The notes under the pieces are model-generated. The model saw only the letters and a list, made by a program, of their open reading frames with translations, had not been told where the DNA came from and did not search any database. 32,000 bases of DNA from Candidatus Saccharimonadota bacterium (GTDB taxonomy: Bacteria; Patescibacteriota; Gracilibacteria; Absconditabacterales; Absconditicoccaceae), in the NCBI GenBank assembly GCA_000503875.1, contig CP006913.1:510001-542000 (forward strand), read 5' to 3'. Position 1 is the first letter of the stretch; each line of letters starts with the position of its first letter. Shown here piece by piece: positions 1 through 32,000 of this stretch. The position numbers and the translations under genes were made by a program.

Positions 1-59
1 TAATGGTAAAATACAAGACTCCGAATCCTGTGTTGTAGGTTCGATTCCTACTCTTCCTG
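1..59 (+). tRNA. 3' portion of a tRNA whose 5' end lies left of the window. The anticodon loop reads CU-CCG-AA, so it is probably tRNA-Arg(CCG).
   Basis: T arm GTAGG-TTCGATT-CCTAC at 35-51. Acceptor 3' strand at 52-58 plus discriminator G59. Anticodon stem 14-18/26-30 has one A-C mismatch, the loop is 19-25, and the variable loop is 4 nt. Confidence 0.6.
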
Positions 60-159
60 AATAGCAAATAAATATTGACATTTTAAATGTAAAATAAAAA
101 GAGATATAGATAAAATTCTATATATAAATACAATTTTTTACCAAAAAATATGTCTACAT

Positions 160-843
160 ATGTCCAAATTAAAACAAATATTTACATATATAAAGAGACT
201 TTTCCCCGATCCAAAGACTGAATTAATATATAATATGCCATTTCAATTAGTAGTAGCTGTAATATTATCAGCTCAGACAACTGATATACAAGTAAACAAA
301 GCAACTTCAAATTTATTCAAAAATATATATACTCCCCAAAATATAATACAAATATGACAATCAAAATTAATAAAGTCAATATCGTCAATTAATTACTATA
401 AGACCAAATGAAAAAATATATTTCTCTTATCTAAGCTTATTGTAGACAGTAAAAAAGTAAAAGATTTATGAATAGAAAAATGGAATACCTACGAGGATAA
501 AAATAATATATATTTTATACCCAACACAATAGAGGGACTTAAAAAATTGCCTTGAATTTGAGAAAAAACAGCAAAAGTAGTAGCTCATGTATTATTTTGA
601 GCACCAGTTATTGCAGTAGATACCCATGTTCATAGAGTATGTAATAGATTATGAATAGTTTCAACAAAAACTCCTGAACAAACTTCAAAATTACTTGAAA
701 ATATTATTCCAAAACAATACAAATCAATTGCTCATCATAGTATAATCCTCTTTTGAAGATATTATTGCACAGCCAAAAAACCCAAATGTGAAACATGCGA
801 ATTACAAAGCATCTGTAAACGATATCAATCAATTAAAAAGTAA
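160..843 (+). CDS. nth: Endonuclease III (HhH-GPD DNA glycosylase with a 4Fe-4S cluster), 227 aa
   Basis: ATG at 160 and TAA at 841-843, one frame with several in-frame TGAs. Motifs seen: VILSAQTTD, LP-G-I-G-EKTA (both G encoded by TGA at 553-561), IAVDTHVHRV, and a C-terminal C-x6-C-x2-C-x5-C (CTAKKPKCETCELQSIC). Confidence 0.93.
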
Positions 844-926
844 GTCATTGCACTTGTGTCCCATAGAACAAGCATTAAAGTAACAATTCATATATTATAA
901 AACTTTTTATCAATTATCATATATTT

Positions 927-1541
927 ATGAATCTTATTGAACCAAAACGATGACTTGAATTAGTTCTATCTCTTCATCAAGCAATGCTTTCATCGCAACT
1001 ACGAACAGTTCTTACTCCAACACTAGCTGATGTTTTCGTATTCAGTTACCCTATCTATCTAATAGTTCTTTATAGTATAGGACGAATTAAAAAACAGATC
1101 AGTTATAAAGTTGCATCGCTCTGGATTTTTGCCAATGTGGTTGTTACCACTCTGGTAAACATAGGAATCCAAGCACTTGTCCAAAAATCCAGGCCAAATA
1201 TTGTCCTCTGATTAATTGATGAGAAAGTAGAAACTGTTCTTCATAAATTTTTACCTACAAGTAGTTTTCCTTCTGATCATGCTGCAGTTTCTATGAGTAT
1301 AGCAGTAGCAACATTCCTTCGATGAATACAAAAAAAAGACAGGAAATATATCTATTTTTCAATTATCTTATTCGTTTTTAGTTGTATTATGTGTGTATCT
1401 AGAATAGCTACCGCTGTACATCGACCAACAGATATTTTAGGTGGGATTTTGGTAGGGGCCATCATTCCTCTACTTCTTAGCACAAAAAAAATCTCCTCAT
1501 TTGGAGAGAAGATTTCTTTATGGATAGGAAAGAAAATTTAA
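927..1541 (+). CDS. PAP2-family membrane phosphatase (undecaprenyl-diphosphatase/BcrC-like), 204 aa
   Basis: ATG at 927 and TAA at 1539-1541. PAP2 motifs KSRPN, FPSDHA and SRIATAVHRPTD are present, with several hydrophobic segments. Three in-frame TGAs are read as Gly. Confidence 0.85.
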
Positions 1542-1555
1542 TTACTACTAATCAT

Positions 1556-4500
1556 TTAACTAGTTTTTTTCGCTTCATAATCTACTTTCAATTTACTATC
1601 AGCAAACGACACTTTTATAGTATTACTCGTATCATGACTAAATACTAAAATACCATTGTCTACTTTCATTTTAGTCATGTTTTTTATATTATCCAAAACC
1701 TTATCTCATAAGGTTATTTTACTTGCATCTTTTCATTGAAGATATACAAGCATATTTCTGAAATGCATAGGATCTTTTATAAAATCCAGAGTCGCAATAG
1801 TTGTTTCAGTTGTGATAGATTCTAACAACATATTAAAATTACTTTTAATAACTCATTGGCCTTTATCAAAATCAAACAATTGACTCATTGGAGCTAAAAC
1901 ACCTTTCTGATATTTTGATATAGGAGTATCTGTTTCTGAACTATCATATGTATACAAATCATCAATTTTTTTGAATTCATAATTTCCATATTTATCACTC
2001 ACATCCTTAAGATTATCTTTTAATCAATTTTTCACTCAATCAAATTTATCTTTTGCTTCTTTATCTACATCTGGAGTTGCTGACTCAACAACTTTAGGTT
2101 GTCATGAAACATCATTTTCTGATAATACATAATGAAAATTACCATTTCATTTACTTCCTCCCATAAGATATGCTGTAATAGCTTTGGCATAATCAAATTG
2201 ATTTGTAATACCAAATAAATCTTTATCAAACAATGTTTCTGTATTTTTATATCCTGATTTTAATTTAGAATCCGAATCAATAATTATTTTATGCGTATTA
2301 GTGTCTTCAATAATTGATTTCAATAATATACCAATAGATCCTTGATCAACATTTTCTTTTATTAATGGTTGTGAAGTTACCGTATCAACGACAAAAAGAG
2401 ATTCATAAGGAATTACCTTCAACTTATCTTTATTTGCCAAATAATAAGAACTCAAAAGATTAGCATCCAATAATTTAGTATTAATAACAGAATTTACTTC
2501 GAAATTTTCTATAATTGATTCTTTATTATTTTCTTGTTTAAATGTAGCTGATATAGTTTTCAAGTTATCAATAATATTTTTATCATCTAATTGTATTGTA
2601 GTAGAATTGTTTTGAATAAATTTAAAACCTTCCAAAACTTTTTTTTGATCAGCATCAAAACCATATTGTTTAACAAATTCGTTATTCAATACATCAGAGA
2701 ATCAAGGTATTTTACCAAACTTCTTCAATAATCCACCTTTTCCACCAAAAAGAGAATCCAAAAATTTCATCAACATTTTTCCTATAGGATGTTGAAATAA
2801 AATTCATACAACAGATTTAATCTGATCTTCAAGTGTTTTAGGTTTATCTATTCATTCTTTTTGTATATCAATAGTAGCTTTTTGTATAGCAATAATGTCT
2901 TTTAAAGTAATAATTTTAGTGAATAATTCAGAATCTTTATCTATAAACGGGGTATTTCAAGTTGTCAATGAAAATAATTTTTCTGTAACAATTTGTTTCG
3001 TCATAAAATCTACTCATAAGAAATTTGAATTTGTTTTTATTTCTCCTGATTTTATTTCTCCTAATTCTATTTCTCCTAAATAAGTCCTAAGAAGTTCTTT
3101 ATCTCAGCTAATTCATTCAATAAGAATTTTTATATAGTCATTTTTCTCTGATTCAGGATATATTGATATTTTTTTTGTTTCTTTATTTTCCTCCTTTGTT
3201 GTATCATCTGCTAATAATTCTGTACTTTTATCTATAATAACCTCTTTGGTTGCATTAATTTTATTCAAAAAAGTCTTTAAATTTTCTCATGTTTTTAAAT
3301 ACGATAAAATCTCTTGTGGTCTTTTTTGAAAAAGATATCTCAATCCTTCACTACCTCAATGACCATCTAGCTTCATTTTTCAAACAACATCCATATAATC
3401 TCAAGGATTTTCTTCTTTTACATCATCAAATAATGTTGATAATGATGGTGTCTTTTCTAATCATTGAGCTAAATCTTTATTTGGATCTCCAAAAGTAATA
3501 TATCAAGTTATTGTTTTTTCAGATCAAGGTTTAGTACAAGGAAGGGAAACAACTCTAGTACCATCTTGATAATGAGAAATTTTTCCTGTATCAGAAGATC
3601 TTGCATAGGAAAGATCAAGCTTTGAGAAATCTGGCGTATTATCATTAAGTTGAGATCTAAGGATAAGTTTAAATGTATTTATATGTTGCTGCGTTATAGC
3701 TATTTTCTCTCCTCTAAAAGTAATTTCTCAAGGAGTAAATCCTTTTTTTTCTATTTTAAGCAAATACATCATATCAAAAATATCATTGTACACTTGCTTA
3801 TATTGCTCTTTTTCTACAAATTGTTTAAAACTATCTGGTTTTTGATTATCGGATTCCAAAATAGATTTCCAAGAGATTGAAGATTGTTTTTCTGGCGATA
3901 ATTTAGCAGCAGTTATTGAATTAGTCTCTTTTATAGCTGTTTCCAATACATTATCTATATCCGATTTTCATTTAACATCTATTGGTGCAGTATTTATTTG
4001 AGATTGTACATTATTCAAAGACTTTGTAATAAAAGATACTAATTCTGCATCAGGAGTATTTTTTAAGTCTATTTTGAATTTATTAATTCATTTTTGCATC
4101 GATGTTTGTGCTAAGGGATGCATTTTTGAAATTTGATTTTCAATCTTAGAAATGGTTTCTTCTGCATCATTTCTAATTTTTGTATAATTTATTTTATTCT
4201 CTACAGTCTGATTTACTCACTGCAACTGAGCAATATTAGAAATTATTGATTGATCTATGTTTTTTTGAGATGTTTGTTCTGTATATTTTTTATCTTCCAA
4301 AGAATATTTATCAAAAGATATTTTAACTTCATTGTTTATTTTTTTAAAAAAATCTTTCATTGATTTTTCTCAATTAATATTTTGTGCAAAATCATTTATA
4401 TAACTGATATATTGAGGATATTTTTGTTTAAATGATTCTAGATTTGTAGATTGATAAAAATTGGTCAACCCAGAATTAGATCAACTTTTTCATTTATCCA

Positions 4501-4906
4501 AAAAATCCATATATAAAGTGCCAAGTTCCTCAGCAAAAGAAGAAATCTGTTCATACTCTTTGCTAGATTCTTCTAGTTTTTGTTTGTCTGTAATTTTTCA
4601 ATCAAATAATTGATATATCAAATCTTTATAAACACTATCATCTCTATTAATATGATCATTTTCCTTATCCATTTTCCATAATGTAAGCAAAAAATTTGCT
4701 AATAATTTTTTTTCTTCTGGCGTGCAAGCAGAAAGTGTTGTTATATTAGCCTTTATATCAGATAAGACAAAATCAAAAACACGCTGATTTTTTTCCAAAG
4801 AAACAAGAGAATTCAAAGATTCCTTATAATCAGAAATTTGTTGAGGATTCATTTTTATTTCTGGTATTTTATCTTCAAAATGTTGTTTGTTTTCTACGTT
4901 TGTCAT
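1556..4906 (-). CDS. Large orphan protein L1, 1116 aa, with no recognised domain
   Basis: My codon-by-codon scan of this frame finds 0 TAA/TAG and 29 in-frame TGA. The frame joins track ORFs 2147-2689, 3728-3946 and 4598-4906. ATG at 4904-4906 is preceded by an in-frame TAA at 4916-4918, and the TAA stop is at 1556-1558. The protein is K/E/N/D/S-rich, with no signal peptide or TM segment seen. Confidence 0.85.
3038..3082 (-). repeat. Three tandem copies of a 15-bp unit inside L1, encoding a GEI pentapeptide repeat
   Basis: The copies are tatttctcctgattt, tatttctcctaattc and tatttctcctaaata (plus strand). On the minus strand they translate as LGEIELGEIKSGEIK. Confidence 0.8.
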
Positions 4907-5225: not shown

Positions 5226-6344
5226 TTAGTTAGAAGCAAGAAGATGTTGTTTCTGTTGTACATTCATTTCTTGCGCTCTCATAATATATTCTTTCCATTC
5301 TTTTTTTTCTGAATAATTAGTATAAAGCTGATTAAGAGCAAATTTTGAATCATTTTTCGTAAAGAGATTAAGAAATGTTTTTGATTTACTTAAAGCAATA
5401 GCGACTCTATTTTCTTTGAAGATTTTTTGTATATCATCTTTATATTGCAATCACAAAGTATCAGATACATCCATAACAACAGAATTAGCTTTTTTCTCTT
5501 TATAATAAGCATATGACTGAGATGTTGTTTTCCAAGGTCAATGTTTTATTATGATTTTTCAATTTTCTAATTTATAATACGTACGTTTAAGAAAATTTTG
5601 TTGTACTCTTTTTCAAGCTCTATTAATTATTTCTACGCCTTCCAGAAACATATGTGTTCATAAAGGTTTTTTTAATACTTCCCAGGATTCAAATTTTTTA
5701 TAGTCTTGTGGAGGAAAAACTAAATTTTCCTCTTCTTCTAGATCTTTATCTGAATCATCTTCCGGAGTTTTAATATCGTCATCTTTTTCAGGTGTTTTTT
5801 GTGGAATCTTCTGAATATCAGGGACATTTCTACCACTCATACTCACATCTAATGCAGCAAATCTATACGTTCATTGTTCATCTGTTTTATCAACAGGAAG
5901 CACATCAAAGTGAATCTTATCTTTTATGGTAGTAAGAAGTGTTTGAGGTAATTGATTTAGCAACGTCATTGCTCTAAGCCATGCCTGAGCAGTATTTCCT
6001 GTAGAAAGATCAGGATTAGTAACGATTCCTTTTTCTTTTAATGACGATGCCATAGAGTTAGCTTCTGATTTTTTGTTTTCAGCTCAACCAGTGGACCATC
6101 AAATACTATCAGCTCTTGCTCTTACCGTAAATAAATCAACATGATTACCAAAAGCAGTATGAAAATTAACAATATTATCTATTTCTGATTGTGGTAACTT
6201 TTCAGCAGCTCCTACCTCTTGATTTGAAGCACCAGCTTCAATTTTTTTCTTTAAATCGGAAAATTCTCATTGTGTAGAAGACACTACTCAATCTACATCT
6301 TCTTGATGATTATTTGTATATTCAACAGTTTCTCCAAATACCAT
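5226..6344 (-). CDS. Orphan protein A, 372 aa, first gene of the A-S1-L1 operon
   Basis: Joins track ORFs 5226-5450, 5658-5846 and 5871-6053, all in one frame and separated only by TGA. ATG at 6342-6344 has an in-frame TAG upstream at 6375-6377, and the TAA stop is at 5226-5228. A central acidic/Lys-rich linker reads KTPEKDDDIKTPEDDSDKDLEEEE. No signal peptide seen. Confidence 0.82.
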
Positions 6345-6491: not shown

Positions 6492-7082
6492 ATGAACGCA
6501 AAAAAAGCAATAATTATAGGAAGTTTAGTAGCAGCAACAATATTGCCTTTTTCTAGTAATGGACAACAAACTACAAACAAAACAAAAAAAGATTTAATAG
6601 AAAATATAAATGGAAAAAATAATAAAATCAATGAAAAACCAGCTAATGTCGTAGATTATCAAAAACAAACACTCCTCTATATTAATGAAATAAGAAAACA
6701 ACATAAATTATCACCGCTAAAATATGATAAAACATTGGAAAATCTAGCACGAGAACAATCAAAATATCTGAAAGAAAATAGACCAGTTTGACATAAATTA
6801 GAATCTGGAGATCATTTTGATAAAAAATATAGCTTACCTATCCACAGGATAGAAAAAGCCCGATGAGAAAGATTAGATTTATTTTGAGAAGAAGATCCTT
6901 GATCAGAAGTAATCGTAACAATAGATCAAAATTCCATAAAAAGACTTGTCGATCTCCGAATGGAAAGTAAAAAAGGACATAGAGAAAGAATATTAGGAGC
7001 ATATACTCATATGTGAGTAAGTTATGAAAAAGGAAGTAATTTTTTTATTGTCGTTTTTGCAAGAGAAAAACCCCAAAATTAA
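6492..7082 (+). CDS. Secreted CAP/SCP (YkwD-like) domain protein, 196 aa
   Basis: Signal-peptide-like N-terminus MNAKKAIIIGSLVAATILPFSS. CAP-like segment INEIRKQHKLSPLKYDKTLENLAREQSKYL. Five in-frame TGAs are read as Gly, and the TAA stop is at 7080-7082. Confidence 0.75.
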
Positions 7083-7134
7083 AAGAAAAATATTATGAAT
7101 TAAATTCAGGTTCTTTTGCATAAAAAGAAAAATA

Positions 7135-8778
7135 TCTATCTTTTTGAATTCATTCTTCAGTAGATTGAGATGCGGTTTGCTTTCATTTAATCAAATCCCC
7201 CACAGAAAAATCTATTTTTTTAACAAGTTCTGAATCTTTTCCATTTGGAAGTTTTTGTAAAAGATAAGTAATTGATGTCAATGCTCTACAGATAACTAAA
7301 TCAGATTGTTTTACATCATTCCAACTCTTTGTTTTTTCTTGCATAGAAGTAACTAATGTATTTACATCAAAAGATAATTGTTTTGTAGAAACTAATTTTT
7401 GTATTCAATCGATTAAATTCTTTTTATCTTGTGTGAAATCTTTGCCTTCTTTGATTCAGACATAGTCAACGCCAGCACTAATAGCAATTGGAATTTTTTT
7501 TATGTCATTTACATCAAGAATTCTTTTTTCATAGGCATCAAATATTTTTTTTACAGAATCCATTTTTTGTTTTCATGATTGAGAAAGTGTATATTCTCAA
7601 AAATCAAAAAAATCAAGTCAACGAGCTGATTCTGGATTTGCACTACTACTATTATCTAAAATTCAATTAGTTGTTATTTGAGTAAGTACTTCATCTTTAT
7701 TATTTGGCTCAATTAATCATGTTTCTTTATTTACAAAAGAATTAGCAATAACTTTTAAAGAAACATCTGGTCTATTTCATAATTTATTTGAATCCAAAAC
7801 AATATGCGTTCAATCTATAGAAATTCCAGAAGATATTATTTCTGATTGATTTTCTCGTATAATTCAAGATTTTCCTTGTCATTCAGTATGTCAACGTAAT
7901 TGTTTTTCTCCTATAGAAACAAGTATATTTGCTCAAGGTCAATCTACTCAGGCTACTTTTAAATCTAATGACAAAGTATCTTGAGTCCATAAAACAGATT
8001 TTTCATTTTGACCAATTTTATCAAGTTTTGGATTATAATCAAAAAATACCCTTCAATAATTAGATCATTTTTTACCATCTATTCATGCCGTATTAGATCA
8101 ATCTCAAACTGCTAATGTAGTTTGTTGAGGTAATATACGAGCATCTGATGTATTAGCAAATAATTTATAGAAAGCTTTCGTTGTATCCTGTAAAGAATTA
8201 AGTAATTGTTTTTGAGGAAAACTATATCTTTCATATGCTTGTTGTGGCGTTAATGATTCTTGTGTTGATGAATCCTTTTGCTTTTTGCCAATCGATTCAA
8301 AAAAATCTTTTAAATTTACTATATTTCAATTATCATCTTTTCAGGTTTCTATATATTTTTTAAATTTATTAGCATCACCTAAACCTAAATCAGAATAAAA
8401 GGCAGAATTTTTAAAAGAGTGTAATGTCTTTACCATAGCCAAAGAATAAGCAAGATTTGACTTTTCTTCAGAAGAAAAATGCTGCACATCCTGTTTAGTC
8501 AATCAATCAATAGGTTTACTAATTCCATAGGTTTTTAGAATATTATTGATTTTATCTTTTATTTCAGGGCTTGAAAGCAAATCAACCTTAGTTGAAGAAG
8601 CATTAGTAACATTAAATATTTTAGAAAAATCGATAGATGTTTTATTTTCAAGATCTTTAGCAATATTCTTATTATTTTCTTGAGAATCAGTTACTTTATT
8701 AAGTTCTTCTTCATTCTTTATTTCTGGAGTTTCTTTTTTGACTTCTGGAGTTTCTTTTTTAACTTCTGGAGTTGGCAT
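7135..8778 (-). CDS. Large orphan protein L2, 547 aa, with no recognised domain
   Basis: My scan of the frame finds 0 internal TAA/TAG and 25 in-frame TGA. ATG at 8776-8778 and TAG stop at 7135-7137. The N-terminus carries a PEVKKET tandem repeat. Gly-rich middle stretches include AVGDGSNTAGIDGKKGSNYG and VAGVDGPGANILV. No signal peptide. Confidence 0.83.
8721..8775 (-). repeat. About 2.7 tandem copies of a 21-bp unit encoding the heptad PEVKKET at the L2 N-terminus
   Basis: Plus-strand unit cttctggagtttctttttt(g/a)a is repeated. The protein begins MPTPEVKKETPEVKKETPEIK. Confidence 0.85.
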
Positions 8779-8802: not shown

Positions 8803-9093
8803 TTAAAAACTAGACAAAAACTCATCTAATTTTTGTATATCTTTTTGATCTGCTTCTTTAGATAAACGTTCTGTTTCTTGTAAGGATTGTAAATAAGAAG
8901 TTAATTGTTGAGCTTTTTGAGTATTCTGATATTGTAAAGTGCTATGTATCGATTCAACACATTTTTGATACATATCTTCAATATATTCATCCGTAGCCGT
9001 TCAAGAAAGTATTTTCTCTTTTATAGAAACAGCTTCTGTCCAATAAGGGAGAACTCTATCCAACACTTTTAGCACATACTCTTTTTTTGTCAT
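8803..9093 (-). CDS. Small helical orphan protein S2, 96 aa, paralogous to S1
   Basis: ATG at 9091-9093 and TAA at 8803-8805, with one in-frame TGA at 9001-9003. Too short for the track because of that TGA. It lies 24 nt upstream of the L2 start. The first 50 residues share 17 identities with S1 in an ungapped hand alignment. Confidence 0.82.
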
Positions 9094-9705: not shown

Positions 9706-10281
9706 TTAGAATTGTACTTCTGGAGCAATTTCTGCTCATTCTTCTGCATCAAACAAATTAGCTTTTTCAAATCCAAATAATTTAGCAACTATATTTGTTG
9801 GAAAAGAACGTAACATAATATTAAATGATTTAACTACAGTATTATAATTCATTCTTTCTACAGAAATTCTATTTTCTGTACCTTCAAGTTGTACTGTTAA
9901 ATCGCGGAAAGCTTCAATAGATTTTAATTCTGGATAATTTTCAGTAACCATTAATAATCTTCAAAGAGCAGAAGATAATTCTCATTGTGATTTTTGATAC
10001 TGTGCAAGAGCATCAACATCTTTGATATCAATATTGGTTTTTGTAGCATTTGCTCTAGCTTCAACAACAGCAGTCAATACATTTTGTTCTTGAGCAGCAG
10101 CTCATTTTACCGTATTAACCAAATTAGGAATCAAATCAGCTCTTCTTTGATATACATTTTCTACTTGTGACCAAGCTGTTTTAACTGATTCATCACCATT
10201 TACCAATCCATTATATTTGCTTGTCAACCAAAGCCCTAGTACCAATACTACGGCAATAATAATCAATCGTGTCTTTTTCAT
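9706..10281 (-). CDS. lemA: LemA family membrane protein, 191 aa
   Basis: N-terminal TM segment [19 protein letters not shown]. LemA-like stretches [32 protein letters not shown] and [15 protein letters not shown] at 10279-10281 and TAA at 9706-9708. Four in-frame TGAs. Confidence 0.9.
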
Positions 10282-10357: not shown

Positions 10358-11206
10358 TTAATCTCCTGCTCCTCAACCACCAGAACTTCCTCATCATCAA
10401 CTAAAACCGCCTCAACCAAATCATCATCAACTAAATCCACTACCTCCACGTCATGGCAAAAATCCCGTAAATCCAAATACCAATCATGCAATTATTCAAA
10501 TCAATAATAAGGTACCAAGCCAAACAAGAAGAACAATAACCACACCAATAGCCAAAGGAATTGCTATTTTTTTTACAGATTTAGGAATTTTTTTTTGTTT
10601 AATTAATGAAGCTAAGATAAATCAAAGGATCATACCCAAAATCCAATATCATTCAGATTTTTGTTCTGAAGAAAAACTAATAGTTTTTGATAAGGTAGCT
10701 GCTTCATCCGTATCTATTGCTTCACTACATCTTTCATAAAATATACGAACCGCACCAGCAAAATCGCCACTATTTACTAAAGGACGAATATCATTTTCTA
10801 TAATACGCTTTACCAATGCATCAGGCAAATCTCACTCCAATCCATATCAAACAATAATTCTGATTTTTTTTTCTTCTGTAGATATCAATAACAACAATCC
10901 ATTATTTTTTCACGCCTGCCCTATCTGATTTTCATTAAATAATTTCATTCCTATATCAAACAGTTCATTTCCATTTCTATGAGGAAACAAAACAGCAACA
11001 AGTTGATTCGTAGTGCTAGAATTGTACGCTTCTCATAAGGAAGATAATTGTTGTAACGAAGATTGATCCAATACATTGGAATAATCCATAACATATTGAG
11101 AAATCTTCGGTAAATTCATTGGATCAACAGATGATTGCGCAAAAACAAAACCACTTCCAAAGACAAGAATCACTATTCCCAATAATTTTTTAAAGAAAAC
11201 ATTCAT
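10358..11206 (-). CDS. TPM-domain (YgcG-like) membrane protein with a Gly-rich C-terminal tail, 282 aa
   Basis: Signal peptide MNVFFKKLLGIVILVFGSGFVFAQS. TPM motif IIV-G-YGLE-G-DLPDA with both G encoded by TGA. TM segments are followed by the tail RGGSGFSGGGFGGGGFSGGGGSSGGGGAGD, in which 8 Gly are TGA. LemA is the classic operon partner of TPM-domain proteins. Confidence 0.88.
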
Positions 11207-20412: not shown

Positions 20413-20548
20413 ACTATTAGAAATAGAATAAAAGTACATACATAAATTATACCCTCTTTTCTAGAAAAATGCAAATTTTCCTTTATTTTTTTTAATAATA
20501 GGTAAAATTTATAAACAAATTTTAGATAATTTTTTTGAAAACAATAAA

Positions 20549-21241
20549 TTATGTGGTAATCTTCCAATTTATAGGCTGTTTTCATTGTGAAATAAGAAAA
20601 TTATTTGTTTGAGAAAAATGTTTACACCCAAAAAATCATCTATAAGATGAAAACGGTGAAGGATGCGCAGCCTGCAACACGAGATGTTTCTCTTGATCAA
20701 TCAACCCGATTTTTCCCTGCGCATATGCTCACCAAAGCAAAAATACTACTCATTTTTTTTCATCAGATATTTTTTTAATAACAGCATCAGTAAATTGTTG
20801 CCATCCAGCATCCTTATGCGAATTTGGGGTATCTTTTCTCACCGTTAACGTAGCGTTCAAAAGGAAAACACCCTGCTTTGCCCAAGAAATCAAATTTCCA
20901 GAAACAGGAATAACAAAACCAGGAATATCTGTCAGTAATTCTTTGAAAATATTTTTAAGTGAAGGGGGAACTCTTACACCATCTTGCACAGAGAAACAAA
21001 GTCCATGAGCCTCCCCCTCTCCATGATACGGGTCTTGTCATAAAATAACTATTTTTACATCATCAAAAGGAGTCTGATTAAATGCATTAAATATATCAGA
21101 TCATTTAGGAAAAACTATATTTCATGCAAGTTTTTCTTGTTCTAGAAATTGTTTAATTTGTTCAAAATACGGCTTCTGAAATTCATCACGAAGAATATTT
21201 TTCCAAGAAGAATGTATTTGTATAGCAGCAATATCGATCAT
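20549..21241 (-). CDS. ung: Uracil-DNA glycosylase, 230 aa
   Basis: IL-G-QDPYHG (TGA at 21038-21040), [35 protein letters not shown] and [10 protein letters not shown]. The C-terminus reads FLISQ-G-KQPINW. TAA stop at 20549-20551. Confidence 0.95.
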
Positions 21242-21355: not shown

Positions 21356-21559
21356 TTATTTTTTACAATTACAATGAGTTAATTCTGCATAAGCAACAAA
21401 CACAGCTGAAAGTCAAACTAATCAATAAACAACACGAGATAAATTTGACATATCACCAAATATCCAAGCAACTAAATCAAATCCGAAGAAACCAACTAAC
21501 CCCCAATTAAGACCACCAACTACCAAAAGTAGTAATGCAATAATATAAACAGTTTTCAT
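21356..21559 (-). CDS. DUF378 family small membrane protein, 67 aa
   Basis: Sequence MKTVYIIALLLLVVGGLNWGLVGFFGFDLVAWIFGDMSNLSRVVY-G-LV-G-LSAV. The GxLNWGLxG and FDLVA pattern is typical of DUF378. TAA stop at 21356-21358. Confidence 0.8.
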
Positions 21560-21694: not shown

Positions 21695-21699
21695 TAATT

Positions 21700-21771
21700 C
21701 AGGGCCGGCAGGAATTGAACCCGCGACGCGGAGCTTTGGAGACTCCCGCTCTACCACTGAGCTACGGCCCT
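21700..21771 (-). tRNA. tRNA-Trp, anticodon CCA
   Basis: The reverse complement folds as a cloverleaf. Acceptor AGGGCCG/CGGCCCT, D arm GCTC-AGTGGTA-GAGC, anticodon arm GGAGT-CTCCAAA-GCTCC, T arm GCGGG-TTCAATT-CCTGC, discriminator G. CCA 3' end is not encoded. Confidence 0.92.
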
Positions 21772-21776
21772 ATTTT

Positions 21777-22101
21777 TTGCCCAATCTAATAAGCCTGATT
21801 CTGTACTATGTGGAATTTCTCTAAGTCGACGTAAAGTCGACATCTGCACTACTCTATACAAGATAGGTAAGCTTGCACCAGCTATGGTTTACCACTCGAA
21901 CACCCATCAGGTGAACTGAGAAGAAGTAGCTTGCTTTAGCAAGCATCCTCACGTTGCATCTTTTCTCTGCCGAAGCAAAGTAGTTTTCGTTTCTGTGGCA
22001 CTTTCATTTAACATGATTCAGCATCCATAAGATGCTAGCTTTTTTATGGTGTCAGGACTTTCCTCCCCACATTACTGCAAGGTACCACATAGATTGGACA
22101 A
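21777..22101 (-). ncRNA. rnpB: RNase P RNA, bacterial type A
   Basis: Minus-strand conserved blocks are GGAGGAAAGTCC (P4 5' strand), GTGCCACAGAAA, GGTAAACCATAGCTGGTGCAAG and ACAGAATCAGGCTTAT (P4 3' strand). An 11-bp P1 pairs TTGTCCAATCT (22091-22101) with AGATTGGGCAA (21777-21787). The region is markedly more GC-rich than its surroundings. Confidence 0.9.
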
Positions 22102-22107
22102 AGATGA

Positions 22108-22135
22108 CTTTTAAGGAATTACAGAAAAAATGCAA
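22108..22135 (-). promoter_or_regulatory. Putative promoter for rnpB
   Basis: Minus strand reads TTGCAT (22130-22135), then 16 nt, then TAAAAG (22108-22113). This places the predicted start about 7 nt downstream, at the 5' end of P1 (22101). Confidence 0.35.
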
Positions 22136-22158
22136 CAGAAAATGCGGCATTAGCCGCA
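22131..22158 (-). terminator. Intrinsic terminator downstream of lysS
   Basis: GC-rich stem TGCGGC/GCCGCA (22143-22148 with 22153-22158), loop ATTA. On the minus strand it is followed by UUUUCUGUUGCAUUUUUU. Confidence 0.65.
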
Positions 22159-22164
22159 CTTCTT

Positions 22165-23763
<1,599 letters not shown>

Positions 23764-23808: not shown

Positions 23809-24939
23809 TTAATAATTATTTTTTGTACTAAATGTTGTTTGTAGCGTAAATTGATAATTTTGAATAGATCATTTTAACTTTTTTTGCCATAATCATGCAT
23901 ATAGTTTTGTTTTCAATGATATAGTGAAATAAGGTGCTATTTGAAATTCTCATTCAGCCCAAGATAAATTAGGATTTTTGGTTGGATATATTGTAATATT
24001 TCGATCGGTAACAGTAATACTTCTATCAAATAGATCCACCCAACCAGTTAAAACATCCTGTGCTGATAAAGGCAAACGATATCATGAATATATATTTCCC
24101 AAAGCATTTCAACCGCAAACAAATCACTGAGAATAATCACAAGTCCAAGTATCAAGGACTCAATCATATACACCAGAAGATGTTGCTACAACAAAATCAT
24201 GATTATTTCCTGCATCAAATGATCTGAGTTTTAGCATTTGTAATGCATACAAAAATTCATTATCTCAAGAAATTTGACCATCTCAGTTCCAATCTCAACT
24301 TTCAATAAGAGCCCTTCTGATAAAGACTCTGTACTGTTTATCTTGAGAAATTAAATATAACTCTTTGACTCAAGTAGCTTGTAAAACAGCATCTGGTCAT
24401 TTTCCTAAATCAATATCATCAGAATCATTAATAGCAGAAAAATTAAAGTCTGAATTATCTTTAACATCCAAAAATTGTAATGCATATTGACCAAATGATT
24501 GATGGGTTCATGTTGCACATCACGTCAAAAGATTTGGCGTTTCAATTACATATTCAAAACCTGTGCTATATCACGTAGAAGAACTACAATGATATAAAGC
24601 GTGTTGTCATGTATTTGTTTTAAAGGTATTTTTATTACCAAATGTTGTAAACAAATCACAATATCAATTTATACCAACATTCCAAGAAAACGAACTTAGC
24701 GTATCACAACCAACGCGACTACGATTAAAATATTCTTCATAATCTATAGTATAATCTCTCAATAAAAGATTTACTCTTTCAAACATATAATAAGTAGTTT
24801 CGAGCAATTTCGCTCTTGCTTGAAAAGAATATCTAAAAGTAATTATACCTAAATATGCATTAATAACGATTGTCATCAATAAAAAGAATCCAGTAATAGA
24901 AAGGAGTATTTCCAATAGAGTAAATCACTTTTTTTTCAT
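23809..24939 (-). CDS. Type IV prepilin-like (pseudopilin-like) protein with an unusually large 376-aa body
   Basis: Begins MKKK-G-FTLLEILLSITGFFLLMTIVI, a class III signal peptide (G|FTLxE) followed by a hydrophobic helix. The -1 Gly is encoded by TGA at 24925-24927. The frame was scanned with no TAA/TAG. TAA stop at 23809-23811. Confidence 0.85.
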
Positions 24940-24964: not shown

Positions 24965-26461
24965 TTATTGCAATAAATCTTTATTTAATTCAGATCTTGT
25001 AGAAGGCCCCATCCATCATCGAGTTTGCGGTTTCTTTTCATAACCTTTTAATAGATTCTTTGATAATTGATATTGATAAAGTGCTTCTATAGTTTGGGCT
25101 GAATATATGCCATCAATTATTCATTTATAATGTCATAATTTTGTTAACAATTGTTGCAGAATAGTAATATCATTATGTGATTGTCCTTTTTTAAAAGCTT
25201 GAGTGAATTTAAATCATTGATCAACAATGATAGATGGCGTTTCAACAAGAGTTGTTTGATCTGATGTTGGCAATAATTGTTTTTTATAATCATTTAAAAG
25301 AACTTGTTTTTTTTGAATAACTGCATTTTTAAATGTTGATGTTATATCTTTTTGTAATTGAATAATTAATGGTATCCATTTTGTGATAGCATCTTTAAAT
25401 TGAACAGAATTAATAGTTCAAGAATTTTGTAATGATACTGTTTTAGAAAAGTTTTTTATCTGGTTTGTAATGGTAGCTAATTCTTTTAAAAAACCAGTTG
25501 AAGAAACAAAAGAAGAACATTGTACTTTTCATAAAGGCGCATAAGTAGAAGAAAATAACTGAATATTTTTTGTTATTTGAGTAAATTCTTTATTGTCATA
25601 CCACTTATTAAGAAGCATATTCATTTTTTCATCAAATTGCATTTCATATAATCCCAAAGCATAAATTTTTTGCTGATGTAATTCCAATCCTAATGAAGGC
25701 AATATTTTATTCCTTTTAACTTCATTATTGATAATAGTTTGAAATGTAGAATCCAATCCAGAAAGAGATGCTTTTTTCAAAACATATAATTTAGAAAAGA
25801 ATTTATTTCAAGAACCAGCTAATTGGATTTGATAATTCAATAAATCTGAATTTAATTTTTTGTATTGTTCATCTATATTTTTAATTGTTTGAATATTATT
25901 ACCTATAGTTACCAATAAGTCTTTATTTATTTCAGAATAGTCTTTAACATCTTTAACAAACTTTTCTATTTTATTTTCATAAGAAGATTGAAACTGTGTT
26001 GCTAAATTTTTTTGATTAAGAATTAATTGATTAAGTGATGTTAATATACGAGTTTTCTCAGTTTCATATGTTTTTCAATTAGGAAACAAAGATACCTTAG
26101 TATCTTGGTAAATACGTTGTTTTTGTTCTATATCCAAAGCATCTGCATAAAACGTTGCATAAGCATTCAAAAATCAGATTTTTAGATTTTTATTATCATT
26201 TTGCATTTGTTGTAAAAGCGATGTATCACTAATTACTCACAAACAAACTAATCCTTGATAATTTAACGATGTAAGAAAACCTCCTACAGAAGTTTGAAAA
26301 TTTTGATACACCTTATTGTAAGAAGAATCAAACATATTTTCTATAGTAATTTTTTCTTGACTAATTGTTTCTAAAAATGTTTTTTGAGATGTCGAAGCAA
26401 ATACAGAAATTCAAAACAATAAAAAGCTGAAAAAGAAAAAACTTTTTATAATTCTCTTCAT
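24965..26461 (-). CDS. Secreted protein with a C-terminal peptidoglycan-binding (PG_binding_1-like) domain, 498 aa
   Basis: Signal peptide MKRIIKSFFFFSFLLF-G-ISVFAS. A long helical, Q/N/K-rich middle region. The C-terminus GQSHNDITILQQLLTKL-G-HYK-G-IIDGIYSAQTIEALYQYQ matches the PG-binding repeat pattern. The stretch 24965-25530 was scanned and has no TAA/TAG. Confidence 0.75.
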
Positions 26462-26615
26462 TGGATTAAAATAGAAAATAAAGAATATCATCAAAAATAT
26501 AGCATTACCCCATAGTATTTCAAGTTGATTTTACATTATAAAATAGTAATATCTATTCCAAGAAAACAATAAATTCAAAGTTCTTTACAGCTTTTAACTT
26601 TTATAATACAAAAAA

Positions 26616-27200
26616 ATGACCTTAGTACCAAGTGTGATTGAAAAAACAAAATGAGGAGAAAGAGCCTACGACATTTACTCTAGATTATTGGAAGACAGAA
26701 TTATTTTTATAGGAGAACAAGTACACTCTGGAATGGTGAATACTGTTATTGCACAACTTCTTTATTTGGAAAAGAAAGATCCTGATAAAGATATTATTAT
26801 ATATATCAATACACCAGGTGGTGAAGTATATTCCGGTATGGCAATCTACGATACCATTCAATACCTAAAATGCGATGTATGTACAATCTGTGTTGGTCTT
26901 GCTGCCTCAATGGGATCTGTGTTATTAGCTTGTGGAACAAAAGGAAAAAGATATGCGCTTCCTCACGGAAAAATAATGATTCATCAACCGCTCATTTCTT
27001 GAGGAGGAATTACGGGACAAGCTACTGATATTCAAATAGAAGCTGAAGAAATGTTAAAAGTAAAGGCTATGCTCAATGGTATTATTGCAAAACACACAGG
27101 ACAAAAAGCAAGTAAAATATCCCAAGATATGGAAAGAAATAAACGAATGACATCACAAGAAGCTTTAGAATACGGATTAATAGATAAAATAATCCAATAA
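26616..27200 (+). CDS. clpP: ATP-dependent Clp protease proteolytic subunit ClpP, 194 aa, with Asn at the catalytic Asp position
   Basis: Motifs [36 protein letters not shown] (catalytic Ser), IMIHQP (catalytic His) and GQATDI. TAA stop at 27198-27200. Confidence 0.93.
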
Positions 27201-27231
27201 TTTTCATTTTTTATGAACTCTTATACTGTTT

Positions 27232-28665
27232 ATGAACGCCTATAAACTAACAATTTGATTAGAAATCCACATAAAATTAAAATCTGAAAACAAACTTTTT
27301 TGCCAATGCAAAAATCAACAAGATTTCGAAAATACAAAACCAAATACAAATATTTGTCCAGTATGTACAGGACAACCAGGTGCTCTACCAACACTTAGTT
27401 ATGAAGCTTTACAAAAAGGCTTACTTTTGGGAAAAGCATTAAATTGTACTATTAACAAAGAATCTCGTTTTGATAGAAAATCATATTTTTATCCTGATCT
27501 TCCTATGGGATATCAGATTACGCAATTATATAAGCCTACAAACACAAACTGAAAAATGAGTTTTTATATAGACAATTATAGACAAGAAAGGACAGTACAT
27601 ATACTAGATGCCCATATAGAATCCGATACGGCAAAAATGATTCACGAAAACAAAAAAGCATTATTGGATTTTAATCGTGCTGGAACACCTCTCATAGAAG
27701 TAGTTACATGACCAGATTTCACAAGTTCTGAAGAAGTTATAGAATTTCTTAAAGAGCTTCAAAGAATAGTGAGATTCAACTATATTTCTGATGCTGATAT
27801 GGAAAAATGACAGATGAGAATTGATGTAAATATTTCAATCAGAAAAGATGAAGATACAAAACTTGGTACAAGAGTAGAACTAAAAAATATTAATTCATTT
27901 TCTGCAATAAGAAGAGCGATTGAAAACGAATTCAATAGACAAAAAGATCTTTATGAGACCGATCAAACTTTTTCACAGCAAACAAGACGTCGAGACGATC
28001 AAAACACTTGTTCACACCTAATGAGATCAAAAGAAGATGCTTTAGATTATAGATATTTTCCAGAACCAGATTTACCACCATTAATTCTTAGTGATGAACT
28101 ACTCAAAAATATCAATACTACTTCATTAGAAATTCCTTATATTTTTATTAAACAAGCAAAAGAAGAATTTTGATTTAATAAAGAATTCATAAATGCACTT
28201 ATTCAGGATAAAGAAACATTGGATTACTTTACATCGTTAGATATAGATCCAAGAATCAAAGCAAAACGAATTTGTGGACCAATAGCAGCTCGATGCAAAG
28301 AACAATACAAAACTATAACACAGCTCCCCTTCTCTAAAGAAAGTTTTATACAATTTTTGACTAGTTCTCAAGAAGGTAAACTACCAGAAAATCAACTTAA
28401 AGTAATTATTGAAGAAATGCTAGCAACAGGAAAATCATCAGAAGAAATAATAGAACAAAAATGATTCAATGCCCCAACAATTAATAACAATGATTTAGAA
28501 AATATAGTAAAAGAAGTATTAAAAGATAATCAATCAATTGTAGAACAATATAAAGCAGGCAAGACGACTACCCTATGATTCTTTGTCTGACAAGTAATGA
28601 AAAAAACTGGAGGTAAAATAGACCCAAAAATTGTCGGAGAATTAATTCAACAATTATTAGGATAA
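27232..28665 (+). CDS. gatB: Asp/Glu-tRNA amidotransferase subunit B, 477 aa
   Basis: Motifs I-G-LEIH (TGA at 27256-27258), [63 protein letters not shown] and [11 protein letters not shown]. The C-terminus reads [18 protein letters not shown] stop at 28663-28665. Confidence 0.95.
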
Positions 28666-28679
28666 GAACAATAAGTTAC

Positions 28680-28712: not shown

Positions 28713-28730
28713 ATTAGGAATAGTAGTATA

Positions 28731-29981
28731 TTACATAGTTACCAATACATATATTCAAAGTCCAAGCATCAATAATCATACAATCAAATGAATCAACTTC
28801 GTATTAGTATGTTTAATTTTTGCCAATTTATCAACTGTACTATATCCAAATGCTACTAGAATAGCAATAATTGCCATAGGTAAAACAAAAATCAGATTAT
28901 ATACTAAGAGATAAATATATCCTCGCGTATGTAATTCTTTACTTTCTGCACTTAAATATCCAAGAATTGTAAAATATGGTCAAGAAGAACATGGTAACAA
29001 GAAGATACTAACCAAAAGTCAAACAACAAACGCTCACCATGGAGAAGATACTTTATCAATCATATCTTGCATTTTTGGTCTTCGAGAGAAAGGAACTTCC
29101 ATAACAAATCGTTTTCCATACCAGAAATAATCTTTAAGATTTGCTAATCATACTAATATACCCAAAACTCCAACAATAAGTTTTAAAATAAATGTATTAT
29201 TCAATGTTGCCAAAGCTGAAAATAATCACAATCCCATAGCAAAATAACTAAGAAAAACAGCAAATGAGAATAATATACCTGCAAGCAATGTTTTTCTTCT
29301 ACTTTGATGTCTACTCAAAATAGCAGTAAGTAAAAGTAACATAACCGCAAATGCACAAGGATTTATACTATCAGCCAAAGCAGCTGGCATCATTATTCCA
29401 AAAAATTTAATTCTTTGTGTCAATACCGCCTTCTCTTTATTTTTCAAAACAATTTCTTCATTAACAATTTCTTGTTCAGCAACAATATTCGTTTCAACAT
29501 CAGGTTTTTTTATAGATGTTGTTTGTATTATAGCTCATTGTTTTTCACAATTTTCATGAGTACAGTTTTGATGATCACAGGTTAACGGATCACAATTTTC
29601 AGATTCAGTACATCAACCAGCCTGCAATTCATCCAGTTTTTTTTGAAAGAAATCAACAATAGATTTATCACCAGCCAAATATGTACAAGAATCAGATTCT
29701 GAGTCTATAATCAACATAGGTACACCAACTTGATCAGATGATAAATTTAACTTTTTAACATATTCGTTAAATTCACTGAGATTATTTCTATTAAAATAAA
29801 TTTCTTTTTTTTCTAAAGAAAATTTTTTCTGAATATCATTTTCGTTGAAGAAATCTTCAACTTTAGCACAATGAGGACAACCATTTCAATAAAAGAAAAT
29901 ATAATCTTGAGCAAAACTCATAGACATAAATCATCATACAGCAAAAAGCAATCAGATTATAATTTTTGTTCCGTATTTCAT
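28731..29981 (-). CDS. Fusion of an N-terminal thioredoxin/glutaredoxin-fold domain (CPHC) with a CcdA/DsbD-type thiol-disulfide transporter membrane domain, 416 aa
   Basis: N-terminal anchor MKYGTKIII-G-LLFAV, then FFY-G-NGCPHC, then a Cys/His-rich linker, then CcdA motifs ADSINPCAFAV and LLPCSS-G-PY with multiple TM segments. The whole frame was scanned with no TAA/TAG. TAA stop at 28731-28733. Confidence 0.85.
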
Positions 29982-30009
29982 ATCAGATAAGGTAATATAA
30001 TATAAAATT

Positions 30010-30291
30010 TTAATTATCAATAACTGAGTTAACAACAATAGAATTACCTATTTTTTCATGTTTAGCATTATCAAATAATATTTGTGTATCAGTATATTCA
30101 CAAACACCAGAAATTGGTTTTAGAGAGTGAAAAACAGTTCAATTATCATATAATGGTGATTCTATATCTTTCAGCTTTCACAAAAACTGGACAATATTTC
30201 ATAGTTGTGTCCCCAATGTAACAGTTTCTTGATCACTCAAAGAAATTGCAGCTAATTTCTGTAAACGTAAAAATTCTTCTTTATTAAGCAT
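30010..30291 (-). CDS. gatC: Asp/Glu-tRNA amidotransferase subunit C, 93 aa
   Basis: Sequence MLNKEEFLRLQKLAAISLSDQETVTLGTQL-G-NIVQFL-G-KLKDIE has GatC-like size and N-terminal pattern. ATG at 30289-30291 and TAA at 30010-30012. Confidence 0.7.
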
Positions 30292-30314
30292 ATCTTATAT
30301 ATAATAATAAATTA

Positions 30315-32000
30315 TTAATTAACCTTTATATTAATAGTTCCTTCAACTTCTGGTTTATCACTGTAAGATACTTTTGCTTTGATCGTATATGTTCAAGGAG
30401 CATCATATGTTGTAGAAGTACTTATACATTCTCTTCCATTACATTCCAATGTCTTTCCATTTCAAAAGTCCCAATAAATTTTTTCTGGCAATCAGTTAAG
30501 GGTTAAACTCATAGGAACTCTATCTCCTATTTTTGCTATCTGCCCAGGATGAGCATCCAAAGTTAAAGTAAGTTGAACCGTTTGTTTTTTTACAATAATA
30601 GGATACGATAATACTATTTCTTTTTTCATTCATTTTCTTGTTGTCACTGTTACTTTTGGATTATAAGTTCCATTTTCTTTTGCTTGATCATAATTATAGG
30701 TATGATTAACTACTGATTGAGATATATTTTTCTTTATTTCCCCATCTCCAAAATCCCAAGTAAAATAGACTATTTCATCACTTGGATCATTTAGTGTTGT
30801 TGTTGAAGCATCCAAAGTAACAGTAAAAGGAGATATTCCCACAGAATCAGGCTTTACCAATAATTTACCAATAATAGCATCTCTATTTACACGAACAACA
30901 ATATTTTTTTCTGTTTTAGCATTGGTTGTTGCGTCTTCAATAAGTATTTGTACACGATGCTCTTCTGGCGAGTCAATCGTAAATTCAAATATTTTATTAT
31001 CTGGAGACAATACAGGTACACCATCCAAGCTTACTTTTCTAAGAGCACGAGTATTATTTGGAACAACTGAAATTAAATTTAATTGAAGAACTGTTGGTAT
31101 TTCTGAAATAGTAATTATTTCATCACTAAAGGTATTTATTCCAGATTGTGTAAAAGCAGTGAATTTTGGAGAACCTGGTGATTTATATTGTAAGTCATAT
31201 GTTATTTGAAAATCTGTTGCTCCAACCTCAATATCTTCACTTTCACAAGATCATTTTTTACCCTCATCAGTAATAAATTCTACTTTAAGAGAATACATAC
31301 CAGCTGAAGGGAATTGGTAATCAAAAACTGGTTGTTTTGATTTTGTTGTTGCAAGCGTTTTCTTTCAATCAAGAACCAAATATTGATATTCTACGACACT
31401 AGCGTTAGCTTCCAAAAACTGAACATCAAAAGCATATGCTGTACCCTGAGTATTATTTGCAATAATTTCACAAACAGGAACATCAGACTGTTCTACTCTA
31501 AGTGGAAAAATATAAGCATACGCATTTAATCAAGGAAATCTAACTGAAACAGTATATAGTTTTGCTTGTTTATAAGTATAAGTAAATGTAGACGCATCTT
31601 GTTTATCTGCTTGACCATCACCATCAGCATCCCAAACTATTTTGTAGTCTTGTAAAGAAAAATCTCTAAATACACTTGATGCATCAAATCTGATTTTACT
31701 TGGAACTTTTCCAACAATCATTTCTGTATGAGCATCATTATAAGAAATAGATCATTCAACAGGATTTACTGCAATTTCTGATTCAAAAACCAATGATCAT
31801 GCAGGTATATCTTTTTGAAGTTTTTCTCCCGTTGGTGTATTTGTATAATCAACTTTCAACGTCATAGGATATTCTCCTTTCTTAAAATAGATACAGTTAC
31901 CATCAAACTGAGCAGTAGCCATATTCATAGGTACTGTTTGCCCATTTCCACAGTCCAAAATAACTTGATTAAAAGTGGACTGTCCAAAACTTGGCAAAAC
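30315..32000 (-). CDS. Large surface protein with repeated PKD/Ig-like domains. Only the C-terminal 561 codons are in the window, and the N-terminus lies beyond the right edge.
   Basis: Track ORFs 30630-31028, 31530-31721 and 31797-31997 are all in one frame, and the gaps were scanned with no TAA/TAG. Repeated PKD signatures: VYFTWDFGDGE...HTYNY...GTYNPKVTV, IVWDADGDGQ...FTYTY...LYTVSV and IYWDF-G-NGKT...YDAP-G-TYTIKAKV. Double TAA stop at 30312-30317. Confidence 0.85.

Follow-up and report, generated by a model that had tools for sequence, protein, structure and literature searches.

Glycine at UGA and probable tryptophan at CGA in a housekeeping stretch of the SR1 genome RAAC1_SR1_1

The window, a stretch of 32,000 nucleotides analyzed over its whole length, contains 25 protein genes and three RNA genes. 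On the plus strand lie the genes for endonuclease III (nth, 160–843; Pfam HhH-GPD and EndIII_4Fe-2S), with 8 in-frame TGA codons and 1 CGA; a PAP2 phosphatase (927–1541; Pfam PAP2; 3 TGA, 5 CGA); a secreted CAP-domain protein (6492–7082; Pfam CAP; 5 TGA, 3 CGA); the RecG helicase (17424–19487; Pfam, PDB alignments and 120 orthologues; 17 TGA, 3 CGA); ClpP (26616–27200; Pfam CLP_protease and PDB alignments; 2 TGA, 1 CGA); and GatB (27232–28665; Pfam GatB_N and GatB_Yqey, 78 standard-code homologues; 8 TGA, 3 CGA).

The remaining protein genes described here are on the minus strand. Three of them encode orphans that had no Pfam match: L1, of 1,116 aa (1556–4906; 29 TGA), which has a 30%-identical orthologue in L001, a syntenic Absconditabacteria MAG; a protein of 372 aa (5226–6344; 10 TGA); and L2, of 561 aa (7093–8778; 25 TGA, 1 CGA). 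These are followed by LemA (9706–10281; Pfam LemA, 1–149 of 149; 4 TGA, 1 CGA), a TPM-domain protein with a Gly-rich tail (10358–11206; Pfam TPM_phosphatase; 17 TGA), the replicative helicase DnaB (11236–12591; Pfam DnaB and DnaB_C; 8 TGA), a nucleotidyl transferase (12734–13633; Pfam NTP_transferase; 9 TGA), a TPR-repeat protein (13665–14531; Pfam TPR families; 4 TGA), PSP1/RicT (14553–15386; weak Pfam PSP1 match; 2 TGA) and the FtsH protease (15443–17308; Pfam AAA and Peptidase_M41; 16 TGA). Beyond recG are an MscS-type channel (19489–20439; Pfam MS_channel_2nd; 8 TGA), uracil-DNA glycosylase (ung, 20549–21241; Pfam UDG; 7 TGA) and a small DUF378 membrane protein of 67 aa (21356–21559), which is a single frame through 2 TGA and a table-11 fragment of which is annotated as PF04070 in L162. 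Class II lysyl-tRNA synthetase (22165–23763; Pfam tRNA-synt_2 and tRNA_anti-codon; 9 TGA) is followed by a type IV pilin-like protein (23809–24939; 18 TGA, 1 CGA), which was recognized by direct reading of its sequence (MKKK-G|FTLLE) and had no Pfam match at E ≤ 0.001, and by a secreted protein with a peptidoglycan-binding domain (24965–26491; Pfam PG_binding_1; 11 TGA, 1 CGA). The last two genes encode a thioredoxin-like or membrane protein (28731–29981; weak Pfam Glrx-like match; 13 TGA, 3 CGA) and a PKD-domain surface protein whose 5' end is outside the window (30315–32000; Pfam PKD; 9 TGA).

The window starts inside a tRNA gene with anticodon CCG, of which only the 3' part is included (1–59, plus strand; Rfam tRNA, 40.6 bits, 5'-truncated). 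The complete gene was found in L161 (9830–9900; 67.3 bits) and has A1:U72 and G73, with U in place of A at position 20. Judged by the Trp-type criteria that we used for CGR-reading tRNAs (G73, no A20 and A/G1:U72), these identity elements appear Trp-like rather than Arg-like. The tRNA-Trp gene (21699–21772, minus strand; ARAGORN and Rfam) does carry the anticodon CCA, as the first-pass annotation had it, but it is not the only tRNA in the window; tRNA(CCG) had been missed. A class A RNase P RNA (21774–22100, minus strand; Rfam RF00010, 106.7 bits, model 1–367 of 367) ends 2 nt before the tRNA-Trp, and the same tandem is found in L001. An open reading frame at 21854–22228 was rejected as spurious. 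Neither a tRNA-Gly(UCA), expected to have the identity elements G1:C72, C2:G71, G3:C70 and U73, nor a tRNA(UCG) was found in the window and the 10 kb flanking it at each end, a search that covered 52 kb of the 1.18-Mb genome.

The proteins of the window exactly match AHB41305–AHB41319 of candidate division SR1 bacterium RAAC1_SR1_1 (CP006913 / GCA_000503875.1), classified in GTDB as species UBA5124 sp000503875 (PMC8629427, supplementary table). Five of them were compared in read-through table-25 translation, and all matched exactly: LemA (AHB41305.1), DnaB (AHB41307.1), PSP1 (AHB41310.1), UDG (AHB41314.1) and ClpP (AHB41319.1). DnaB is also 88% identical to, and syntenic with, its counterpart in L001. 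The earlier assignment to the Absconditabacteria/SR1 is thus confirmed. Kantor et al. (2013, mBio) reported UGA = Gly and a tRNA-UCA for RAAC1_SR1_1, and found 2,288 ORFs averaging 289 bp under code 11 but complete genes under code 4 (PMC3812714). The first-pass reading of UGA as Gly was therefore right but not new, since it was already known for this very genome.

The reading frames of the 23 long genes (9,382 codons) contain 242 TGA codons and neither TAA nor TAG; 22 of the genes terminate at TAA and one at TAG. This agrees with the earlier observation that genes are broken at TGA only, and the TGA counts given then were reproduced for recG (17 in 687 codons), L1 (29) and L2 (25). All 17 individual codons that had been cited were TGA in the frame of their gene (recG 18300, 19128, 19155, 19296, 19302 and 19314; dnaB 11977 and 11989; ung 21038; ftsH 16640, 15974, 15809 and 15812; nth 553 and 559; gatB 27256; pilin 24925). 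The longest TAA/TAG-free frame spans 1,119 codons, compared to a maximum of 185 across 50 shuffles, and Pfam domains run end to end through the TGAs (DnaB_C 2–254 of 255, GatB_N 2–276 of 277, CLP_protease 2–180 of 182). With TGA as a sense codon, coding density is 88% of the window, whereas table 11 yields only four ORFs of at least 140 aa. The prediction that a standard-code annotation shreds these genes is borne out by GCA_003543185.1 (DPJE01000003.1), which is 100% identical over 20.8 kb and is annotated under table 11 as short fragments; the figure of about 27 shredded genes was off, given the gene content found here.

TGA is thus in frame throughout, and it corresponds to glycine. The TGA columns of DnaB and GatB were scored against 153 standard-code homologues (75 DnaB, 78 GatB). 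Over 16 columns, the summed log-likelihood was −17 for Gly and −81 for the next best residue, with Trp at −117, a lead for Gly of about 64 and about 100 log-likelihood units, respectively. Seven of the eight GatB columns were Gly-dominant, four of them with Gly in 77–78 of 78 homologues, and DnaB residue 201 (11989–11991) was Gly in 75 of 75. In PDB alignments, TGA fell on Gly at 12 of 16 positions in RecG, 6 of 7 in UDG and 5 of 7 in nth, including those of the LP-G-I-G-EKTA motif of nth, and never on Trp. Compared to Thermotoga FtsH, 11 of the 14 aligned TGAs in FtsH coincided with Gly, those of the Walker A and HExGH motifs among them, and none with Trp. The claim that the TGAs fall on invariant glycines was too broad, however: about one in four of the TGAs that could be compared with homologues lie in variable or non-Gly columns, such as DnaB residue 205 (11977–11979; Ser in 68 and Gly in 3 of 75 standard-code homologues) and ClpP residue 13, the conserved Arg of "RGER" in PDB alignments. 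Such columns are normal for Gly codons, because the window's own GGN columns, used as a control, behave alike. The mean Gly fraction was 0.55 in the TGA columns and 0.45 in the GGN columns, so that the TGA columns proved as Gly-rich as the GGN columns. Furthermore, 90 of the codon swaps between the window and L001 were TGA–GGN, compared to 8 for each next best residue and none for Trp. Among the window's Gly codons, TGA is used most often (242 times, versus 192 for GGA), and counting it raises the Gly content from 3.9%, from GGN alone, to 6.5%.

Two other readings of TGA can be set against these data. Under the standard code, the TGAs would have to be explained by pseudogenes, by selenocysteine insertion or by programmed read-through. 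Apart from the fact that TGA occurs, nothing speaks for this, and the probability that we give it is negligible: frames are kept, essential genes have intact domains, TGA positions are conserved in relatives, and the fragments called by the table-11 annotation cover about 35% of the 20.8 kb that were compared. These data refute it. Code 4, in which UGA is Trp, as in Mycoplasma and in the metagenome mode of Prodigal, gives the same ORF structure as table 25, and most public predictions do have W at TGA (90 of 120 RecG orthologues, as well as protein P0002). However, no Trp was found in any TGA column of the standard-code homologues, in either the DnaB and GatB sets or the PDB alignments, TGA is exchanged with GGN and not with TGG, Trp content would reach an implausible 3.1%, and the anticodon of the tRNA-Trp is CCA. 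Code 4, which the first-pass annotation had also dismissed, is hardly credible and is refuted by the homologue columns.

More serious is the third alternative, plain NCBI table 25, with UGA as Gly and CGA as Arg. The window has 23 CGA codons (24.5 per 10,000, compared to 54 for UGG) and no CGG among 9,382 codons. GenBank translates CGA as Arg, and the exact matches AHB41305.1 and AHB41319.1 have Arg at these positions; two of the three CGA positions of RecG are occupied by Arg in E. coli, in regions that align poorly; and at GatB residue 354, a variable column, 11 of the 78 homologues have R. In contrast, GatB residues 254 (W59/Y11/F8) and 346 (W46/Y17/F8), also CGA, have no R at all among the 78 standard-code homologues, and GatB has these three CGA codons without any TGG. 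At ClpP residue 177, CGA corresponds to Phe in PDB homologues and to TGG in L003. Against standard-code homologues, no more than a handful of CGA columns carry information, and in the three that do, the score of Tyr comes close to that of Trp. Across the recoded relatives L001, L003 and L004, CGA was exchanged with TGG nine times and with AGA, AGG or CGT never; in the PAP2 phosphatase, for example, four CGA codons stand opposite TGG, two in the comparison with L001 (residues 53 and 132) and two in that with L003 (residues 8 and 166). In the 120 RecG orthologues, the three CGA and three TGG columns are essentially R/W only, with no K or G (the exception being 3 of 120 sequences with Y or A in the TGG column of residue 660), whereas 27 true Arg columns include K in seven and W in only one. 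Plain table 25 would have to treat this pattern as real Arg–Trp replacements. The Codetta call for this genome, CGA = Trp (PMC8629427), and the lack of the Arg determinant A20 in tRNA(CCG) also stand against it, and we consider it highly improbable. In these comparisons, the CGA codons of the window correspond to Trp. Table 25, which the first-pass annotation had named as the code of the window, is correct for UGA but incomplete, and a table-25 translation puts Arg at 23 probable Trp positions, those of the CGA codons.

Almost certainly, then, the window represents a housekeeping region of the SR1 genome RAAC1_SR1_1 in which UGA is read as Gly, with CGA, and by inference CGG, read as Trp layered on top. 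In this closed, 1.18-Mb genome, as in its lineage, UGA is a sense codon for glycine, decoded according to the literature by a dedicated tRNA-Gly(UCA) encoded in another part of the genome, and termination would occur at UAA and UAG alone. As a second change, CGA would be read as Trp rather than Arg, and CGG presumably likewise. The tRNA-Gly(UCA), the loss of RF2 and the synthetase that would charge the CGR-reading tRNAs enter this scheme from the literature or by inference. For Shulgina and Eddy, the presence of RF2 together with a missing tRNA-Gly(UCA) indicates that non-recoded Gracilibacteria have kept UGA as a stop codon (PMC8629427).

It is very probable that the code of the genome is table 25 plus CGA/CGG = Trp, in which case the product of the tRNA(CCG) gene in the window would be charged with Trp. 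To our knowledge, this combination is absent from the NCBI tables. If it is true, tRNA(CCG) would serve an essentially unused CGG, a "captured" codon at an early stage. The GenBank table-25 proteins of the genome would then show Arg at positions that are Trp in the cell, and the same error would be found in every protein of a relative translated with CGA as Arg. Rinke et al. 2013 is reportedly another source for the UGA = Gly code.

Among known systems, RAAC1_SR1_1 as described by Kantor et al. (2013) shows no difference from the window, being the source organism itself. Table 25 shares UGA = Gly, the UAA and UAG stops, a low-GC genome and CPR membership, but CGA and CGG remain Arg there, while CGA behaves as Trp here. 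Code 4, known from Mycoplasmatales and insect endosymbionts, is similar in that UGA is a sense codon and the genome is small and low in GC, but there UGA is read as Trp by a Trp tRNA(UCA), whereas here it is Gly and a separate tRNA-Gly(UCA) is reported in the literature. A further system is the CGA/CGG-to-Trp reassignment predicted by Codetta in Absconditabacteria (Shulgina and Eddy, 2021, eLife; PMC8629427), for which the supplementary table lists this same genome with UGA = Gly, CGA = Trp and CGG undetermined, with tRNA(UCG), tRNA(CCG) and tRNA(CCA) present and tRNA(ACG) absent, and with 25.7 CGA and 57.9 UGG per 10,000 codons, against 24.5 and 54 in the window. Both assignments of CGA are computational; that of Codetta is based on Pfam consensus columns, and ours on codon swaps within the lineage and R/W-only columns. 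A code with CGA and CGG as Trp is only a modest step past the published prediction for the same genome.

When TAA and TAG are taken as the sole stops, the longest frame in the window, which has a G+C content of 29%, runs to 1,119 codons, against a maximum of 185 in shuffled sequence (n = 50 shuffles). With TGA read as sense, 23 long genes cover 88% of the window; table 11 leaves only four ORFs of at least 140 aa. Across the 9,382 codons of the 23 genes there are 242 in-frame TGAs and no TAA or TAG, and the genes terminate in TAA (22 genes) or TAG (one gene). Only UAA and UAG terminate in the window, and UGA is a sense codon. The first-pass annotation had described genes interrupted at TGA and never at TAA or TAG, as was seen here; its 17 named coordinates are all TGA in the frame of the gene, and its TGA counts for recG (17) and for the orphan proteins L1 (29) and L2 (25) were correct on recount. 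The Pfam domains DnaB_C, GatB_N, CLP_protease, Peptidase_M41, LemA and tRNA-synt_2 match end to end across TGAs, demonstrating that these are single genes and not fragments.

The protein gene count is 25, made up of the 23 long genes, a 67-aa DUF378 membrane protein gene at 21356-21559 (-) with two TGAs, and a possible small ORF of 96 aa at 8803-9093 (-) with one TGA, located in the gap at 8.8-9.7 kb. Both of the small ORFs are visible only with TGA read through. A 125-codon ORF at 21854-22228 was rejected as spurious, since it overlaps the RNase P RNA. Three large, TGA-rich orphan proteins had no Pfam match: L1 (1556-4906 (-), 1,116 aa), a 372-aa protein at 5226-6344 (-), and L2 (7093-8778 (-), 561 aa). 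The L1 orthologue in a close relative, Candidatus Absconditabacteria MAG STD2_163 (L001), is only 30% identical, compared to 75-92% for the adjoining housekeeping genes, indicating that L1 is evolving fast.

The amino acid assigned to TGA was addressed by four independent tests: composition, homologues of solved structure, column statistics and codon swaps. In the 23 genes, GGN codons by themselves account for 3.9% Gly, a figure that TGA raises to 6.5%; TGG codons give 0.54% Trp, and assigning TGA to Trp would bring this to 3.1%. In standard-code homologues of solved structure, TGA fell on Gly at 11 of 14 sites in FtsH (including the Walker A GxxGxGKT, HExGH and LLGGRAAEE motifs), 12 of 16 in RecG, 6 of 7 in UDG and 5 of 7 in nth; the non-Gly sites were in variable regions or insertions, and no Trp was found at TGA positions in these four comparisons. 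Column statistics were based on 75 standard-code DnaB homologues from a scan of the genome collection and 78 GatB homologues from a metagenome scan. (A tblastn search of all window proteins against 153 standard-code loci yielded hardly any homologues other than those of DnaB and GatB.) Seven of the eight GatB TGA columns are Gly-dominant, four of them with Gly in 77-78 of 78 sequences, and all 75 DnaB homologues have Gly at residue 201. Summed over the 16 TGA columns, the log-likelihood favoured Gly (-17) over the next residue (-81) and over Trp (-117). In the comparison with the syntenic relative L001, TGA was swapped with GGN 90 times; the next best partners were Ala, Ser and Lys, with eight each, and Trp had none. 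The same pattern was seen in more distant recoded relatives. Within the limits of sequence evidence, UGA = Gly is thus established.

Reading UGA as Trp (code 4) also restores complete genes: in the published analysis of this genome (Kantor et al. 2013, PMC3812714), code 11 gave 2,288 ORFs with a mean length of 289 bp, and code 4 gave complete genes. Code 4 is nevertheless excluded, as it was by the first-pass annotation, because there is no Trp in the TGA columns and TGA swaps with GGN, and the composition points the same way. Pseudogenisation, selenocysteine and a phage origin were ruled out by the column data together with the gene content. Most of the sites cited as invariant glycines, such as dnaB 11989-11991, are indeed of that kind, but this is not a general rule for the TGAs. 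The dnaB codon at 11977-11979 corresponds to Ser in 68 of 75 homologues, and several N-terminal TGAs of FtsH and RecG are at variable positions. The TGA at ClpP residue 13 (26652-26654) lies at the Arg position conserved in the N-terminal RGER motif of ClpP homologues, where the recoded relative L003 has Lys; Gly at this position is probably a real substitution. The non-Gly columns reflect the ordinary behaviour of a Gly codon, since the GGN control columns are equally spread: the mean Gly fraction was 0.55 for TGA columns, slightly higher than the 0.45 for the GGN columns of the window.

A second reassignment is indicated by CGA, which occurs in frame 23 times (e.g., 27991-27993, 28267-28269, 27144-27146 and 1422-1424). 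Shulgina & Eddy 2021 (PMC8629427) predicted that Absconditabacteria read CGA and CGG as Trp, and their source table for the same genome lists UGA = Gly and CGA = Trp, with CGG undetermined, tRNA(UCG), tRNA(CCG) and tRNA(CCA) present and tRNA(ACG) absent. GatB has no TGG codons and three CGA codons; in the 78 standard-code homologues, the corresponding columns are W59/Y11/F8 and W46/Y17/F8, with the third variable. Taken alone, these three columns score Tyr almost as high as Trp. At ClpP residue 177 (CGA), PDB homologues have Phe and L003 has TGG. Among the recoded relatives L001, L003 and L004, CGA swapped with TGG in nine cases and in none with AGA, AGG or CGT; these true Arg codons swap with one another and with AAA. 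In 120 RecG orthologues, R and W make up essentially the whole of the three CGA and three TGG columns, with K and G absent; the sole exception is Y or A in 3 of 120 sequences at the residue-660 TGG column. Of the 27 true Arg columns, seven contain K and only one contains W. On computational grounds, CGA therefore very probably encodes Trp in the window.

ARAGORN detected only tRNA-Trp(CCA), at 21699-21772 (-), consistent with the anticodon reported in the first-pass annotation, which had however overlooked a Trp-like tRNA at the window edge: Rfam identified positions 1-59 (+) as the 3' two-thirds of a tRNA with anticodon CCG. The complete gene is found in the flanking DNA (L161, 9830-9900). 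It has A1:U72, discriminator G73, the D-loop AAUGGUA and U, not A, at position 20, features that by the criteria of the eLife paper (PMC8629427) predict a Trp-type and not an Arg-type tRNA. Its cognate codon, CGG, is absent from the 9,382 window codons. A search for tRNA-Gly(UCA) and tRNA(UCG) that covered the window, the 10 kb flanking it at either end and the recoded relatives L001-L004, L008, L081 and L082 found neither; it recovered only tRNA-Trp(CCA), tRNA(CCG) and a single tRNA each for Val and Ser. The gene for tRNA(UCG), which CGA decoding requires, is located elsewhere. A class A RNase P RNA at 21774-22100 (-) ends 2 nt before tRNA-Trp(CCA), and the tandem is kept in L001 (448-776 and 779-850). 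If the two are co-transcribed, RNase P processing of the tRNA 5' end would at the same time define the 3' terminus of the RNase P RNA.

The window itself shows UGA behaving as a Gly codon and CGA as a Trp codon, and it carries a tRNA with anticodon CCG whose identity elements are Trp-like. UGA would be decoded by the dedicated tRNA-Gly(UCA) described by Kantor et al. 2013 (PMC3812714), and the absence of RF2 is reported to accompany recoding (PMC8629427). TrpRS presumably charges the CGR-reading tRNAs, which would differ from tRNA-Trp by an anticodon change at position 36 only (CCG) or at 34 and 36 (UCG).

The same DNA has been deposited twice. The table-25 record has intact proteins, with Arg at probable Trp sites, as in any table-25 translation of the window. 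The other, GCA_003543185.1 (DPJE01000003.1), has no mismatches over 20.8 kb and was annotated by NCBI in table 11, giving 30 short fragments, about 2,445 residues and about 35% coding over that length, with GatB in six pieces and T2SSE and T2SSF also broken (L161, L162); the shredding anticipated from the sequence is thus present in a public record. This assembly is labelled Patescibacteria/Gracilibacteria, not SR1. Logan/ENA predictions place Trp at TGA sites (P0002), and 90 of the 120 Absconditabacterales RecG orthologues (P0023-P0142) were translated with TGA = Trp; 90 contain more than 2% Trp. Such translation puts Trp at invariant Gly positions, and the Walker A glycine of RecG (residue 293) is W in 65 of 120. 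The significance is practical rather than conceptual: errors from an alternative code that is already described persist in public data, and gene calls in scans of such lineages should use UGA = Gly, with CGA and CGG as probable Trp.

The five read-through, Gly-translated proteins compared exactly match AHB41305.1, AHB41307.1, AHB41310.1, AHB41314.1 and AHB41319.1, with locus tags in P148_SR1C00001G0513-0528 of candidate division SR1 bacterium RAAC1_SR1_1 (1,177,760-bp contig, CP006913). For this genome, Kantor et al. 2013 (PMC3812714) reported a tRNA-UCA nearly identical to other SR1 tRNA-UCAs, and conserved alignment positions that indicated Gly. UGA = Gly is therefore already known, and its derivation here repeats a published result for the same genome. 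The analysis usefully adds the probable second reassignment, CGA = Trp, a tRNA(CCG) that had been overlooked and a direct record of public mis-annotation, and the Trp-like behaviour of CGA in the window agrees with the Codetta prediction for the same genome.
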